Source: Ignavibacteriota bacterium
Lineage (GTDB): Bacteria > Bacteroidota > Ignavibacteria > UBA10030
Direction of reading: 5' to 3'
Assembly: GCA_963701295.1 (NCBI GenBank)
Contig: OY969585.1
Span: forward strand, 1,088,001-1,152,000
DNA: 64,000 bases
Positions within the stretch are counted from its first letter, which is position 1; each line of letters starts with the position of its first letter. A model generated the notes under the pieces. The model was not told the DNA's origin. It saw nothing but the letters and a program-made list of their open reading frames with translations, and made no database searches. Positions 1-6,530 of this stretch are shown here, one piece after another. A program made the translations under genes and the position numbers.

Positions 1-613
1 TCATTTCACGGCAGCGGCGTTTAATCTGTGTTATCCAATCACGCTCCATCGGACGCGCACCCGGGCCTGATTCGCCGCCGACGATAACCCAATCGATTCC
101 TCTCAGCGGAAGTTTTGAGATAGGACCAAGCAATGGCTCTAAGGAAAGAAATCGAACAGCAGCAGGTACTTTGACCAGTTCATGGATCCGGTCTGTATAT
201 TTTTGAGATTCGACACTCACGCCCATCCAGACATTTTCAGGCCATGGAAGAAAAGGTGCTATGTGCACTAACCGATCCGATCTTTTTGTAAGTATCTGGA
301 ATGTGTGCCAATATGCGCGCCTCATGGTATCAAAGACTTTTACGATAAAATCGCAAGGAACATCTTTATGCAATAAATCGCTCATGGAATTGACAAAAAT
401 GACGCGCGGTTGTTTCCATTCGAGCGGCAATTCGACGATGTCTTCCTGAAGAGTTACCTTAAATCCATTTCGATAGCGCTGTGATCCCATTGCTTGAAGT
501 CGCATAGCCATACGCTCGGCATAGCAGTTCTTGCAGCCCGGACTGATTTTGCTGCAGCCAGTTACCGGGTTCCAGGTGGATTCTGTCCATTCGATACTAG
601 AATTTTGCGACAT
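1..613 (-). CDS. DUF5131 / phage Gp37-Gp68 family three-Cys-motif (radical-SAM-like) protein, 3' end outside window
   Basis: Manual translation from ATG at 613: [36 protein letters not shown]..., with the family's WNPVTGC-x6-C-x2-C-YA signature. Absent from the ORF track because its stop is outside the window. Confidence 0.92.
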
Positions 614-618
614 ATCTT

Positions 619-1818
619 TTATCGTTTTACGAGTTTAACAAATTTTTCATCGGAAATTCGAACAGAACCATTTTCAGTAATAAGATCACCTGTTTCAAGC
701 AACTTTTTAATAGCTTCATTGTACTCACTTTTTGTAAACCGAGCAAATTGAGACTCAATAAATCGCTTTCGAAGTTCTGGCCTCTTCATCTGAATACTAT
801 AAGGATTATCTTCAGACTTGCATCGCTCATTTGCTATTCGAAATGCCTCTTGCAACATAAGTTGAGGTAAAGCCTCAATATCAGGTTGCATGCCACTATA
901 AAGAAATTCAGATGGTTCATTGTTCTCAAACAATGTGTCTACATTCTTGCATCTGATTTCTTCAAGCATTAATTCTCTCTTTGCTTTAATCATGACATCG
1001 TTCATTATTTCTATTGCAATTTGACTTTGAGAAGCAAAAATCAGAAAATATTTTACTTCTTCCCCCTTTAACCCAGTAGTCACAGGAAGAACACCTAACC
1101 ATTGAAAGATTTCTCGAAAAGATTCCAGATATTTTGATTGAATAATTTGTGGTTTATCATCGTCTGGAATTGATTCTGAATTCATAATATCTAACCACCA
1201 ATTTCCACCTAATGAATCTGTTACAATAGATGTAATTGTTTCAGCCTGTTTACGTAATGTGTCATTTTTAGAATGTAAGTTTTTACAAATTCCTGTAAGT
1301 CTTGGTATAGCTCGGTGGTTAAAATTGATCAGAAGTTCTGTACTTCCTTTCTTTGCCCGTTGAAACACTTGTAATAGCAGCCTCATCGATAATCCTTTTA
1401 TTCCAAAAGGATCTAAGAACATAAATAGAGGTATTTGCTGAGGCAAATTTTTTAATAGAAACAGTCCAACATCTGCAGCTTCACCCGGTATAACATTGAC
1501 TATTCCTTGATCAATAAATTCATGAAGATTGTTCTTCAATTGTTCTCGATCTTCATCATTAATCTCCGCTAAAACAACACGATTATTAAAGCCTAGCTTC
1601 TGTCGATAAATACGTGCAAGATTGGCGATGATCATTGGAGAACCATCGGAACCATCGTCGAACTTCCCCTTGCCGGCAAATAAGTCAGCAACTATTGCTG
1701 GAGATCTATATTTTTGATTAACTTTTGGAAAATATTCTAAGAGGTAGTTTTTAAGAATCTTGTACTTTATGAGAGACCAAGAACGCGGCCGTTCAAAAAA
1801 AGAGTCTGATGTAATCAT
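619..1818 (-). CDS. tcmP: Three-Cys-motif partner protein (TcmP family, SAM-methyltransferase-like fold)
   Basis: [32 protein letters not shown] and ELLINF motifs; directly upstream of DUF5131, its usual partner. Confidence 0.85.
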
Positions 1819-1941: not shown

Positions 1942-2373
1942 TCATCCTGGTCGTTTCTTCTTCCCGCAATCAATACAATATCCTTTATGAACACAAATTG
2001 TACCTCCACATTGAGAGCAAGTCCATTTTACATCTTCATTCTTTAAAAATTTTCTAATACCGAGATTTTTAATATTTTCAAGATTTTCAATCATGCTCAT
2101 ATCGTATTTGGTTCGGTATCTTGTATCCAGATGCTTCAAATTGTCGCAGGGGAAATTACTGCATTCAAAACAAAATTTTGCTCTTCCGGTTCGAAAATTT
2201 GTGCAGTTCTTGATTTTACATCGAACACGGGTAACCGGTTTATTCGCGTTCGCTCCTCTGCAGCCGGGACATTTATTTTTCTCTCTCAGATAAGCCATGC
2301 AAATGCCGCAGTTCATTCCGCAAGGAGCTATAAGAGAAAACTTATTCAAGGATTCCATTTTCTCCTTTTTCAC
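1942..2373 (-). CDS. DUF3795 family Cys-rich putative Fe-S/Zn protein
   Basis: APCGMNCGIC..CPGC..CKIKNC..CFECSNFPC plus C-terminal CSQCGG..C..CIDC. Its start overlaps the repressor stop. Confidence 0.8.
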   Translation of the reverse strand: MKKEKMESLNKFSLIAPCGMNCGICMAYLREKNKCPGCRGANANKPVTRVRCKIKNCTNFRTGRAKFCFECSNFPCDNLKHLDTRYRTKYDMSMIENLENIKNLGIRKFLKNEDVKWTCSQCGGTICVHKGYCIDCGKKKRPG

Positions 2374-3026
2374 ACACTCTTAATCACTTTTATAACGCGC
2401 CACATGAAAGTCACATCTTTCTTGTGTACCGCCATTGGTTCGTATTCGGGATTGAGTGGAATCAAGTGTACAAATTGTTCGTCAATTTTTATCCGTTTTA
2501 CAGTATCCTCTTCATCCACGCGCACCACGCAGATGTCGCCGCTTCGCACTTCTAATTTTGGCGTTACCACAATGATGTCGCCGTTCTCGATGCGGGGCGC
2601 CATGCTGTTTCCCTTTACTTCGAGTGCGAACGCATTTGGGTCGCGCACATTGTCCACCGTGATGTATCGCTCTGCCTGATCGGAATGAAACCGCTGGCTC
2701 AATGCACCGGCCGGCACCGATGCAAGCAAGGGAAGCGAAACGAGTTCTACTTTTTTATAACGGTTTGTTGGCAATGGTATGACCTTGGATTTGTGCTGTT
2801 CAGCAGGAACCATCTCTCCTTCACCGCTCAGCAGCCAATGAGCCGCGACTCCGGTCGCTTTGGCAATGCGCATGAGATAATTACTGTCGGGCACCTGATC
2901 GCCTTTTTCCCATCGCTGAACAGTGCGTGTAGCAATATCGATCTTTGCGGCAAGATCAGCCTGGTCAAATTGTTTTAACAACCGCGCTTCGCGGATACGT
3001 TGTGCAATTGTAGGTTTCATAAGCAT
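2370..3026 (-). CDS. XRE-HTH + S24 peptidase repressor (CI/LexA-like, autocleavable)
   Basis: HTH IAQRIREARLLKQFDQADLAAKIDIATRTVQRWEKG, Ala-Gly cleavage site VPAG, catalytic GNSM (Ser) and TVKR (Lys). Start re-called at 3026/3020 rather than 3149. Confidence 0.92.
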   Translation of the reverse strand: MLMKPTIAQRIREARLLKQFDQADLAAKIDIATRTVQRWEKGDQVPDSNYLMRIAKATGVAAHWLLSGEGEMVPAEQHKSKVIPLPTNRYKKVELVSLPLLASVPAGALSQRFHSDQAERYITVDNVRDPNAFALEVKGNSMAPRIENGDIIVVTPKLEVRSGDICVVRVDEEDTVKRIKIDEQFVHLIPLNPEYEPMAVHKKDVTFMWRVIKVIKSV

Positions 3027-3033
3027 TCTCCAA

Positions 3034-3049
3034 ACGACATAAATGTCAT
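3034..3049. promoter_or_regulatory. Candidate operator 1, ACGACA-TAAA-TGTCAT
   Basis: Near-perfect inverted repeat just upstream of the repressor start; same motif as 3143-3158. Confidence 0.7.
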
Positions 3050-3053
3050 AACC

Positions 3054-3083
3054 AAAATAATGCTTTTTATCCCATATTGTCAA
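3054..3083 (-). promoter_or_regulatory. Sigma70 promoter of the repressor gene
   Basis: Minus strand TTGACA (3083-3078), 18-bp spacer, TATTTT (3059-3054). Confidence 0.6.
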
Positions 3084-3134
3084 TAGCTTTATAATAGAGC
3101 AGAAAACAACAGCGGGCTGTGCTGGAATCACTTC

Positions 3135-3163
3135 TTGACAAGACGACAAAAATGTCGTATTGT
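3135..3163 (+). promoter_or_regulatory. Sigma70 promoter of the PolB2 operon, with operator 2 (ACGACA-AAAA-TGTCGT, 3143-3158) in the spacer
   Basis: TTGACA 3135-3140, 17-bp spacer, TATTGT 3158-3163; the spacer holds a perfect 6-4-6 palindrome. Confidence 0.8.
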
Positions 3164-3174
3164 CTTATAAATAC

Positions 3175-3966
3175 ATGAGCAAGATAATCAACATAATACC
3201 CGCTGCGCGCCAACGCCGGTACCCCGCTCCGCCGCCAACCGTGGACCTGCATGATAGTGCGATTCCCATTCGCTCTGAACGGATGATTCATGCCTTTGCA
3301 AACAAACCGGGCAAGGTATTTCTGTTGTACGGCGAGCGGGCTATTTTTCAGTTGTCGCTTCAGATGGCCGCGCATACGATGGTTCAGGGAAATCCTATTG
3401 CCGTTGTAGACGGCTGCAACCGTTTCGATGTGCACGCGCTTTCACGATTTGCCCGCGTGCGGAAAATCGATCCGAACAAATTTCTCAATCATATTTTTAT
3501 CTCGCGCGGCTTCACGTGTTATCAAATGGAACAGGCAATTGCGCACAAACTGCCGGCGTTTCTTGCAACCATCCATTCGAACACTGCACTGGTTTTTGGA
3601 CTGCTTGATACCTTCTACGACGAACAAGCATCTCTGCGTGAGGTGCAGCAGATTCTTCAGAGACTGCTCGGCTCGTTTCAAGAAATGAAATCGAAAGGAG
3701 TCTCGCTCTTGCTGGTGTGTTTAGAAAGGACCGTCGCGCCGCAGGAACGCAATCAGTTGTTTACGACATTAAAGAATGGCGTCGACCGTGTGTACAAACT
3801 CGATATCAATGAACGCGGTACACTTCAGCTCTATTTAGAATCTCAACAGCCTGTGCACGAACAAATAAAAGGAGCATTGAATTATGGGACGAACCGTACC
3901 CACCTTCACCAACCTGATCGATGCGGAACTGGCAAGCTGGTCAAAATTCCGCCGCGGACTGCGTAA
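3175..3966 (+). CDS. Inactivated RadA/RecA-like ATPase (iRadA / ImuA-like)
   Basis: VFLLYGE with no Walker A Lys, VVDGCNRFDVH, IFISRGFTCYQM, LLDTFYDE; first gene of the PolB2 operon. Confidence 0.8.
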   Translation: MSKIINIIPAARQRRYPAPPPTVDLHDSAIPIRSERMIHAFANKPGKVFLLYGERAIFQLSLQMAAHTMVQGNPIAVVDGCNRFDVHALSRFARVRKIDPNKFLNHIFISRGFTCYQMEQAIAHKLPAFLATIHSNTALVFGLLDTFYDEQASLREVQQILQRLLGSFQEMKSKGVSLLLVCLERTVAPQERNQLFTTLKNGVDRVYKLDINERGTLQLYLESQQPVHEQIKGALNYGTNRTHLHQPDRCGTGKLVKIPPRTA

Positions 3967-4138
3967 AGACGATCAGGAAGTTTTCGACGAAATTTTCCGC
4001 GCCGCAAAACTGCACCTGGCAGAAAATTTTTATGCGATGCGGGCTGTTCCGTTCGAAAGCATGATGATGTCGATTGTCGTGGAACAGCAGAAAGCGATTC
4101 GAAGATTGGAAGAAGAAGGAAAGAAAATAAGAAGTTGA
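3884..4138 (+). CDS. Small helical PolB2 partner protein (arCOG07300/PPB2-like)
   Basis: MGRTVPTF..E...WSKFRRGLRKDDQEVFD...PFESMMMSI; SD AAAGGAG upstream; lies between iRadA and PolB2. Confidence 0.8.
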   Translation: MGRTVPTFTNLIDAELASWSKFRRGLRKDDQEVFDEIFRAAKLHLAENFYAMRAVPFESMMMSIVVEQQKAIRRLEEEGKKIRS

Positions 4139-4249
4139 GTAGATGAGTCTATGAGCAATTTAGCCAATGAGCCGTTGAGCCTATAAGTAGTTGAGCATGA
4201 AAAAAATCAGTTTTCAATCTGAAATCTCCAATCTAAAATCTCCAATCTC
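4134..4249 (+). repeat. Degenerate 8-mer tandem array (nnTGAGyn x8) followed by a 7-mer array ((C/A)AATCT(G/C/A) x5)
   Basis: gttgagta gatgagtc tatgagca atttagcc aatgagcc gttgagcc tataagta gttgagca; then caatctg aaatctc caatcta aaatctc caatctc. Confidence 0.75.
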
Positions 4250-6530
4250 TGCCTGGCTGTTCGATGTGTATCCGTCTGAACGCGGCGTCACACTCTGGTT
4301 TATCGGCCGGAACGGTGTACGGCTGCGCTGTTTCCGCACTTTTACGCCGTCATTCTTTCTTCATTTGAATAATTCCGACGCCAAACGTGCGGCGGTTCTT
4401 GCCGACCGGTGCCCTGTTCCGATTTCGCTTTCTCCTACGATGCGCACGGAAATTTACTCCGGCGATTCCATCAATGTGCTGCAAGTCTTTGTTCATGATC
4501 CGATGCGGTTCAAGGAAGTTGTATGGTACTTCGAGAAATTTTTTCCACATTTTGCATTTTTCAATTCTGATGTTTCCGTAGAACAGCAATTTCTGTATGA
4601 AACGCAGTTGTTTCCGCTGGCACTTGGCGAGTATGAGGTCGGTAAGGAAGGTGAACTTCTCTCCTGGCATCTCAATGACAACCGTGAAGCGCCGGAATAT
4701 GAACTGCCGCCGTTTTCCATTATGCAGCTTCGCAACAGCAATGATTTCGTGCCGCCGAAGTACCAGAAGTTTCTGCAGTTAGAGATCAGTTACGAAAACC
4801 GTACGTATGCTTTAGAACAGGATTCACCGCGCGAACTGCTCGAAGCGTTCAACTGGCATCTTCATCATTATGATCCCGACTTGCTTGTTACCGATTACGG
4901 CGATGCGGTTCTTCTTCCGAAGATCCTACAGCTTTCCAAACAGTTCAACATTCCTTTGCTTCTCAATCGAGACGCCGAGGCACAGCACCGCACGACGAAG
5001 GAATCAAGTTTCTTTCAGTACGGAAAAATTGTCCACAAAGATGGTGCATTCACGCTCGCGGGGCGCTGGCATGTCGATGCGAACAATTCTTTTACCGTGA
5101 GCGAAGCTGATCTCGACGGATTATTTGAGATGACGCGTCTGACACAAATGTGCGGACAGCGGCAAGGACGCGCGAGCATCGGCACGTCAATGTCATCGAT
5201 GCAGCTTTCGTGGGCGTACCGCAATAATGTGCTTATTCCGTCGAAGAAACGTGAACCGGAGGAGTTCAAGTCAGCCGCAACACTGCTGCTTGCCGACCGC
5301 GGCGGACTTATTTTTAATCCTCCGCTTGGGTACCACGAAGATGTTGCGGAACTCGATTTCGTCTCGATGTACCCAAGCATTATGGTGAACAACAATGTCT
5401 CGCCGGAGACGGTGAACTGCCGATGCTGCCATAATGAAACAGTGCCAGAACTTGGATATACGATCTGCGAGAAGCGTAAAGGTGTGGTTCCGGAAACACT
5501 TCGCGCTGTTGTCGCCAAACGTGCGTATTACAAACGGATGAAAAAAAAATTCAAGGGAAAAGATGAAGTGCTTTTTAAGCGGTACGATTGCCGGCAAAGT
5601 GCGCTCAAGTGGATGCTGGTAAGCTGCTTCGGCTATCTTGGCTACAAGAACGCCCGCTTCGGACGCATCGAGGCACACGAATCGGTCAATGCCTTTTCGC
5701 GGGATGCCATTCTCACTGCAAAAGAAATTGCCGAGAGCCGCGGCTACAAGCTTCTCCATGCTATTATCGATTGTGTGTGGCTGAAAAAGCCCGGCGCGAC
5801 ACAGGACGATTACGAAGAACTTGCACATGAAATTTCCACACGTGTCGGTATCGATATTTCGCTGGAAGGCATGTACAACTGGATTCTTTTTCCCTCATCC
5901 AAAACAGATCCGCAGATTACTACCGCAAATCACTATGTGGGATGGTACCGGCATGGTGACATCAAAATGCGCGGTATCGAGGCGCGGCGGCGCGATACGC
6001 CGAAATTTATTAAAAACATGCAGAAAGCAATGCTGGATAAAATGTCCGCCGCAAAGAATGTCGAGGAAGTATCGACACTCGTGCCGGAAGTATTGGAGAT
6101 CGCACGGGGCTTCATGGTACTCCTCCAAAGTGGACGTGCAAACCCGATGGAGCTTGTTCTCAAGCGCCACATCACGCGCGAGGCCGATGAATATCTTAAT
6201 AACAGCATCAATGCGGTTGTTTCCAAGATGGTAGAAGAAATGGGAGTACACCTCTCGGCAGGCGAGTCGATCGAGTTCATTATTCTCGATCAATCTGGCA
6301 AGAAAAAGCCCGAAAGAGCTAAACCTCTTGCTCTCTATGCTTTCGAGGACGGCTACGATATTGAGCAGTATACCGAGCTTGCTTTACGGGCTGTGGAAAC
6401 GCTTCTCCTTCCCTTTGGCTACGATGTACAACAGTTGAAAACGCATTTTAGAATCGGTATGCCAAAACAAAAGCGTCTGCAGGTACCCCAAAAAAGTCAG
6501 GAACTTCCATTGTTCCAAATCCAGATCTAA
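4197..6530 (+). CDS. Family B DNA polymerase, PolB2/Dpo2 group
   Basis: Motif A ELDFVSMYPSIM, motif B KWMLVSCFGYLG, motif C reduced to HAIIDCVW (typical of B2), KMRGIEARRRD; exonuclease motifs degenerate. Confidence 0.9.
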   Translation: MKKISFQSEISNLKSPISAWLFDVYPSERGVTLWFIGRNGVRLRCFRTFTPSFFLHLNNSDAKRAAVLADRCPVPISLSPTMRTEIYSGDSINVLQVFVHDPMRFKEVVWYFEKFFPHFAFFNSDVSVEQQFLYETQLFPLALGEYEVGKEGELLSWHLNDNREAPEYELPPFSIMQLRNSNDFVPPKYQKFLQLEISYENRTYALEQDSPRELLEAFNWHLHHYDPDLLVTDYGDAVLLPKILQLSKQFNIPLLLNRDAEAQHRTTKESSFFQYGKIVHKDGAFTLAGRWHVDANNSFTVSEADLDGLFEMTRLTQMCGQRQGRASIGTSMSSMQLSWAYRNNVLIPSKKREPEEFKSAATLLLADRGGLIFNPPLGYHEDVAELDFVSMYPSIMVNNNVSPETVNCRCCHNETVPELGYTICEKRKGVVPETLRAVVAKRAYYKRMKKKFKGKDEVLFKRYDCRQSALKWMLVSCFGYLGYKNARFGRIEAHESVNAFSRDAILTAKEIAESRGYKLLHAIIDCVWLKKPGATQDDYEELAHEISTRVGIDISLEGMYNWILFPSSKTDPQITTANHYVGWYRHGDIKMRGIEARRRDTPKFIKNMQKAMLDKMSAAKNVEEVSTLVPEVLEIARGFMVLLQSGRANPMELVLKRHITREADEYLNNSINAVVSKMVEEMGVHLSAGESIEFIILDQSGKKKPERAKPLALYAFEDGYDIEQYTELALRAVETLLLPFGYDVQQLKTHFRIGMPKQKRLQVPQKSQELPLFQIQI

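Follow-up and report, generated by a model that had tools for sequence, protein, structure and literature searches.

A conserved GACA-N4-TGTC box as the predicted operator of an XRE-S24 repressor at its own promoter and the divergent PolB2 promoter in Ignavibacteria

Two copies of a 16-bp palindrome lie at the divergent promoters of an XRE-S24 repressor gene and a PolB2 polymerase operon in the window, a stretch of 64,000 nucleotides from an Ignavibacteriota genome (GCA_963701295.1, contig OY969585.1, positions 1,088,001 to 1,152,000). As judged from the sequences of this genome and its relatives, these palindromes are very probably the operators of the adjacent repressor, which would keep both its own gene and the divergent iRadA-PPB2-PolB2 genes repressed until DNA damage triggers its RecA-dependent self-cleavage. 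Repressor and box would make up a damage switch that is predicted to work like the non-canonical (phage-repressor-type) LexA regulons, a kind already known, with a box sequence that is new within the literature searched.

The first candidate operator, O-pol (3143..3158, no strand assigned; ACGACA-AAAA-TGTCGT, 24.0 bits), is the perfect palindrome that a sequence-only reading of this DNA had reported in the PolB2 promoter. Its sequence takes up the 17-bp spacer of the sigma-70 promoter predicted to drive the PolB2 operon rightward (TTGACA-17-TATTGT, 3135..3163, + strand; TTGACA at 3135-3140 and TATTGT at 3158-3163) but does not lie wholly between the two hexamers, as that reading had put it, because its final T doubles as the first base of the -10. 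The second, O-rep (3034..3049, likewise unstranded; ACGACA-TAAA-TGTCAT, 22.9 bits), carries one mismatch, begins 4 nt past the -10 of the predicted leftward sigma-70 promoter of the repressor (TTGACA-18-TATTTT, 3054..3083, - strand; TTGACA at 3083-3078 and TATTTT at 3059-3054) and covers the predicted start site, as had been claimed; the repressor ATG follows 13 nt on. The distance from O-pol to O-rep is 109 bp. Distances of 96-99 and 107-109 bp recur among box pairs in relatives; the two classes differ by about one helical turn, a weak hint of phased contact. A companion site 31-32 bp away, common in relatives, is absent from the window.

When the genome, a single contig of 3.64 Mb, was scored with a matrix built from relatives alone, O-pol and O-rep ranked first and second. 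Within the window, six matches with at most two mismatches were found against 2.2 expected, and six were reached in 2 of 100 shuffles; taken alone, this count is weak evidence against chance. The genome-wide scan for ACGACA-N4-TGTCGT that had been proposed returned a single perfect match, where 0.19 were expected, and 7 one-mismatch sites, which is not above the counts for other spacer lengths (2-11), and by this measure the box is not enriched in this genome. The six one-mismatch matches other than O-rep fall within ORFs. It is by position and conservation that the box is seen to be more than chance. Elsewhere in the genome, a 20.1-bit site sits inside an ORF, and an intergenic 19.6-bit box (G000:C1:3436885) has neither an in-register -35 nor a gene start nearby.

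Conservation of the motif upstream of orthologous operons, the absence of which had been named as grounds for dropping the proposal, was checked, and the motif is kept upstream of both the orthologous repressors and the PolB2 operons. Of the 61 related genomes, 51 carry the box pattern, whose consensus is RYGACA-WWWW-TGTCRY (16 bp), and 8 its reversed control; the composite TTGACW-NN-box is present in 47 and its reversed pattern in none. The sampled relatives, Ignavibacteria/Bacteroidota MAGs where they bear names, are kin, so these counts are not independent events. In a de novo search of 150 bp upstream of the repressors, with the source organism's own genus reduced to one locus, GACA-N4-TGTC was the top spaced palindrome, present in 30 of 34 regions. 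A box of at least 14 bits lies within 800 bp upstream of the repressor at 46 of 48 loci and at none of the 48 downstream controls, the scoring matrix having been trained on the same loci; among genomes outside the training set, 7 of 7 have a box upstream of the repressor. At the two missing loci, the box was found 1.1 and 2.8 kb upstream, before inserted genes. A promoter ends 0-15 nt ahead of a box at 40 of the 48 orthologous repressor loci.

The region between the boxes and the start of the repressor or iRadA is also an insertion hot spot, where many relatives carry 130 bp to 2.8 kb of additional sequence with the promoter block left intact (L002-L007, L010, L013, L014, L020); passengers at this spot would come under the box.

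A 28-bp near-palindrome (3137-3164) had been described around O-pol, and 22 of its 28 positions are indeed self-complementary, but the conserved unit is the 16-bp box. The longer palindrome was rejected as a unit: its outer arms are the -35 and -10 hexamers, which pair at five or more of six positions in only 7 of 82 distinct promoter-type sites, and since these arms are promoter boxes and their pairing is not conserved, it is a by-product. The layout shared by the 82 sites is TTGACA-NN-box-ATnnT, where the bases conserved after the box, ATnnT, are the remainder of the -10. That the palindrome is an RNA hairpin, a terminator or a chance by-product of two overlapping promoters is scarcely conceivable. 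Although 3143-3158 was flagged as terminator-like, 3130-3175 folds at z = -4.6 and genome-wide enrichment is lacking, the half-site sequence is conserved beyond pairing, the spacer is fixed at four A/T bases and the box keeps a fixed register to the -35. Moreover, among the 120 metagenome loci listed, 91 have a second box 30-33 bp upstream. The terminator and hairpin in particular are ruled out by the position of O-pol upstream of the predicted start site, where it would stay untranscribed.

The protein to which we assign the box is a 216-aa XRE (434/CI-type HTH)-S24 repressor (2370..3020, - strand; PF01381 + PF00717). In a family-model search, its PF00717 match (E 2e-26) was the only PF00717/S24 match of the genome, and the LexA DNA-binding domain (PF01726) was found neither on the repressor nor anywhere else in the genome. 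Against TIGR00498 the protein scored 67, under the cut-off of 111. At its N-terminus it matches the 434 repressor structure (E 8e-6), at its C-terminus those of LexA, lambda CI and UmuD; when the S24 domain was aligned to LexA, the Ser-Lys dyad was present. The features of interest are helix 3 (ATRTVQRWE), Ala104-Gly105, Ser139 and Lys175. Helix 3 aligns with the recognition helix of the 434 repressor. A recA gene is present in this genome.

Full-length orthologues with at least 51% identity were found in 48 of the 61 related genomes and, across the phylum, in 18 of 251 sampled genomes, all of one order. Residues R32, T33, Q35, R36, W37 and E38 of helix 3 are invariant in 48 of 48 orthologues, as are S139, K175, Val102, Pro103 and Gly105; residue 104 varies, giving Ala-Gly in 21 and Gly-Gly in 27 of the 48. 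In a tree, 18 orthologues form one clade (100/99), grouped by host family and apart from 8 canonical LexA and 3 phage repressors, several of the outgroup branches being long. Pairwise repressor identity tracks RecA identity (rho 0.64 over 24 genomes, 0 of 2000 permutations). From these comparisons, the repressor appears to be a single-copy gene that is inherited with its host and is not mobile. An origin as a prophage CI repressor was considered and rejected: neither cro nor a prophage context was found, and phage matches are distant (~29-33% identity). The repressor gene sits among PolB2, arginine and glycosyl-transfer genes.

The distribution of the box was then compared with that of the repressor. 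The TTGACW-NN-box composite was found in 45 of the 48 genomes that have the repressor and in 2 of the 13 without it; across the 251 phylum genomes, 16 have both, 2 the repressor only, 1 the box only and 232 neither. Two genomes, G024 and G043, carry promoter-type boxes while the repressor was not found in their draft assemblies, and one boxed site of G043 lies ~80 bp from a contig end. A promoter-type box lies within 3.6 kb upstream in 44 of the 48 PolB2 cassettes with a start in hand, a count biased by the many loci that were fetched via the box. The four boxless cassettes are one on a truncated contig and three beside canonical LexA. Since cassettes beside canonical LexA are boxless, the box follows the regulator and not the polymerase. 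In one such genome (G040), the order is lexA-DUF72-iRadA-PPB2-PolB2, the PolB2 is 68% identical to that of the window, and another palindrome stands before lexA; genome G058 has a CTGT-N8-ACAG box. The palindrome at the lexA promoter of G040 (L246, G040:C74), of the GGTATAC-n-GTATACC type, is a candidate further LexA box. The canonical lexA genes of L248, L249, L250 and L257 have tandem CTGT-N8-ACAG-like boxes of the E. coli type.

A second XRE protein of this genome (G000:C1:51918-52553), from a family unrelated to that of the repressor, joins an HTH to DUF4870, has no S24 domain and carries the helix SLRTIQRIE; a GACA-CAAA-TGTC site (11.2 bits) lies upstream of its gene. RxxQR is present in 28 of 29 relatives of this protein. 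Among their 29 distinct upstream regions, the exact GACA-N4-TGTC was found near -90 in 8 and at least two half-sites in 12, compared with 0 of 30 and 1 of 30 recA regions and with 0.05 and 0.44 expected from shuffles; the remaining 21 have no such exact match, and the eight positives include several kin. These predicted helix and site pairs independently support the assignment of the box to the S24 repressor. XRE-DUF4870 is also the sole concrete rival binder by sequence, and cross-talk between the two proteins is possible. It is decidedly unlikely, nonetheless, that the box is read by another regulator such as XRE-DUF4870, with the S24 gene merely a target: the DUF4870 protein does share the RTxQR helix and the 11.2-bit box before its own gene, but only 2 of 14 family-f1 and 0 of 7 family-f8 genomes were found to have it, too patchy a spread to account for an order-wide box that occurs in 32 of 36 and 3 of 3, and the presence of the box tracks the S24 repressor. 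The DUF4870 gene itself (G000:C1:51825-52553; L504, L514) has GACA-N4-TGTC and direct half-site repeats upstream, a layout common to relatives across the phylum.

In IMG/VR phages, 13 boxed loci (8 distinct) were found, of which 2 have an [RK]xxQR XRE gene and 6 no such gene by pattern search; this sample is anecdotal, and the control pattern hit another motif family. That pattern, TTGACA-N4-CAGA-W4-TCTG-NTA, matches 68 IMG/VR phage loci (L314-L381), many of them divergent pairs separated by ~245 bp and accompanied by a further copy upstream, and appears to be another operator family with the same layout as the box. A pattern search for an XRE helix at these 68 loci returned none.

The proposed mechanism has the repressor dimer reading two TGTCG half-sites through its RTxQR helix. 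At O-pol the repressor would fill the promoter spacer and block sigma-70 polymerase, while at O-rep it would block initiation and thereby adjust its own abundance. Once RecA had formed filaments on single-stranded DNA, Ala104-Gly105 would be cleaved by Ser139/Lys175, freeing both promoters. MerR-type regulators activate from promoter spacer sites. Activation of this kind by the repressor protein is a very improbable alternative: the box is indeed located in the spacer, and the available text of PMC8565304 leaves activation possible for its own regulators, but the 17-bp spacer is optimal, the hexamers are near consensus and a second site covers a start site, and both sites fit steric repression. 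It is also unlikely, to a lesser degree, that the repressor binds the box but responds to an inducer other than RecA-mediated self-cleavage after DNA damage, or that some family members no longer cleave. Gly-Gly stands at the scissile position in more than half of the orthologues counted above, where the available text of PMC10020695 and PMC8565304 gives a cleavage site conserved as Ala-Gly or Cys-Gly, and recA itself has no box. On the other side, the catalytic pair, Val102, Pro103 and Gly105 are invariant and the protein of the window has Ala-Gly, the targets are translesion polymerases, DUF72 and SRAP neighbours, and the same cassette adjoins canonical LexA in sister genomes.

Three genes would be under the control of O-pol. 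The first is the RadA-like iRadA (3175..3966, + strand), recognized by a profile of 12 homologues against archaeal RadA (E 6.5e-6), whose start is uncertain, at 3175 or 3283. Between iRadA and PolB2 lies a conserved 84-aa partner, PPB2 (arCOG07300-type; 3884..4138, + strand), which had no family-model match and takes its name from the gene order in the available portions of PMC11791011 and PMC4104785. The family-B polymerase PolB2 (4191..6530, + strand) matches PF00136 and falls below the NF004416 cut-off; in its motif C, altered to HAIIDCVW, the first Asp is substituted, and the string matches an Ignavibacteriales PolB2 row in the PMC11791011 supplement. The order iRadA-PPB2-PolB2 agrees with what both papers give in their available text. 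A short PolB2 fragment in two frames was also seen at G000:C1:789148-789352.

Downstream of the repressor, also on the - strand, lie DUF3795 (1942-2373), tcmP (619-1818) and DUF5131 (613 to beyond the window start). Transcription of these three genes may start at the repressor promoter, given that tcmP/DUF5131 homologues have their own boxed promoter in six related genomes. The tcmP/DUF5131 pair (window 1-1818, - strand; L183, L185, L191, L197, L209, L215) recurs behind the box or the repressor, which suggests a DNA-damage role for the pair.

To describe the regulon in trans, 60 loci fetched by the box, most of them unlinked to the repressor, were analyzed. TTGACA (5 or 6 of 6 bases) stands exactly 2 bp before the box at 38 of their 64 sites; most of the other sites have no such -35 and are probably chance matches, or are second or start-site boxes. 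The boxed promoters lead to iRadA/PolB2, DUF72, tcmP/DUF5131, a PA0069-type radical SAM protein and a Pol IV-like polymerase (IMS), as well as a few unrelated genes, and DUF72 and SRAP are among the neighbours of target genes. A motif-only metagenome scan returned at least 120 loci, which are redundant and of which 40 have only 300-bp flanks. Among the matches listed, 85 of 120 loci lead to these target genes or to the repressor, which is divergent in 54 of the 120. The first downstream gene among these at least 120 loci is DUF72 (42), iRadA (20), IMS (13), tcmP (6), radical SAM (2), PolB2 (1), the repressor (1) or another known gene (3), with 25 unassigned and 7 too short.

The box had been called SOS-like, and this holds in a narrow sense only. 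None of 30 recA loci reached 12 bits up to 1.5 kb upstream (three with less DNA; 59 genomes have recA), and no box was found before the recA, the two uvrA, the dinB-like or the DUF72 gene of this genome. In one relative, a box near a uvrA start has no -35 in register. A genome-wide SOS regulon was rejected for this genome, which has only two strong promoter sites. As predicted from the boxed promoters, the regulon of the order takes in only a few damage-tolerance functions (PolB2 mutasome, Pol IV-like polymerase, DUF72, PA0069-type radical SAM and tcmP/DUF5131) and omits recA; it is minimal and not a full SOS, and in this genome it appears reduced to the one locus.

We compared this system with known ones as far as the text available for each cited paper goes. 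The Bacteroidetes non-canonical LexA (PMC8565304) is alike in its CI-type PF01381 HTH plus S24, its autoregulation, its fixed-spacer palindrome, its error-prone polymerase and radical-SAM targets and its occurrence in lineages without LexA. Its boxes, however, are GGA-N5-TCC or CTAA-N5-TTAG and it has an extra C-terminal helix past S24, whereas here the box is GACA-N4-TGTC, recA is unboxed, PolB2 is the main target and the protein stops right after S24. Neither published box is in the top 12 de novo palindromes upstream of our repressors, and by sequence 18 of 18 orthologues end a few residues past the last S24 strand, lacking the extra helix. Compared by box, C-terminal helix and recA, the repressor does not fit the Bacteroidetes family, and its lack of PF01726 and of a boxed recA likewise sets it apart from canonical LexA. 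Two Hymenobacter matches, on long branches of the tree, were without either published box. The word 'Ignavibacter' has 0 occurrences in the main text and supplement of PMC8565304 as available.

The closest functional analogue is FddR of Francisella (PMC13148647, in its available text). Like HdiR and UmuDAb (PMC8565304, PMC9578287), FddR is an S24 protein of phage-repressor type; it controls its own gene together with a divergent one and has a minimal damage regulon with translesion polymerases, canonical SOS genes lying outside it. FddR differs in its box (GTG-N11-CAC), lineage and targets, while the present system is order-wide and acts also in trans, as predicted from its boxes. Canonical LexA shares S24 with Ala-Gly, Ser and Lys, an operator over the promoter and, in the Gram-positive box, the 4-bp spacer; here there is no winged-helix PF01726 and the box is another one. 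As the earlier reading had noted, GACA-N4-TGTC differs from the E. coli CTGT-N8-ACAG and Gram-positive GAAC-N4-GTTC boxes (PMC9578287 Table 1, available text), and it also differs from the Balneolaeota direct repeat (PMC7739468, available text). The lambdoid repressors (434, P22 c2, lambda CI) are alike in a 434-like N-terminal domain and in paired operators at divergent promoters; in contrast, the present protein reaches ~29-33% identity to them at best, has no cro or prophage, and is single copy and host-inherited.

The PolB2 mutasome papers (Makarova 2014, PMC4104785; Timinskas 2025, PMC11791011) report the same three genes, DUF72/SRAP neighbours and an association with lexA but count canonical LexA (PF01726 + PF00717), and their available text holds no operator or XRE-S24 regulator. 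PMC12926913 mentions PolB2 and, in the part available, no regulator. In the searchable literature text, which leaves figure logos outside, nothing relevant was found for the motif strings or for SOS/LexA regulation in Ignavibacteria, nor in the searchable literature for DUF5131 with DNA damage or XRE with DUF4870.

With this box, a bacterial PolB2 mutasome controlled by a non-LexA regulator would have its first predicted operator, and whether bacterial PolB2 is damage-inducible could be approached directly. The system adds a case of a phage-type repressor as host damage regulator, with a natural swap for canonical LexA in close relatives. Used as a probe, the box singles out uncharacterised genes, namely DUF72, tcmP/DUF5131 and one for a small Cys-rich protein, which are likely to serve in the damage response. 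A wider reading is possible, if somewhat short of probable: an independently evolved, order-own SOS-type regulator might have taken over the archaeal-derived PolB2 mutasome, interchangeably with canonical LexA in sister genomes; the box might follow a general XRE rule, shared with XRE-DUF4870, by which RTxQR reads TGTCG; and tcmP/DUF5131 and the 80-aa Cys-rich protein might join the DNA-damage genes as new members, the small protein perhaps as the partner of a polymerase.

The ~80-aa Cys-rich protein has three to four CxxC pairs and was found at 33 loci (25 distinct sequences; for example L293:1219-1455 -, L040:3834-4070 +, L432:1064-1309 +). It matched no family above cut-off, had no Atlas match at 0.9 and was not found in this genome. 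It is often the first gene past the box, directly before the Pol IV-like polymerase, iRadA or DUF72. Boxed promoters were also seen before a Panacea antitoxin-like gene and two unassigned ORFs, and beside an IS1-like transposase (L157, L382, L393; L168; L170; L175).
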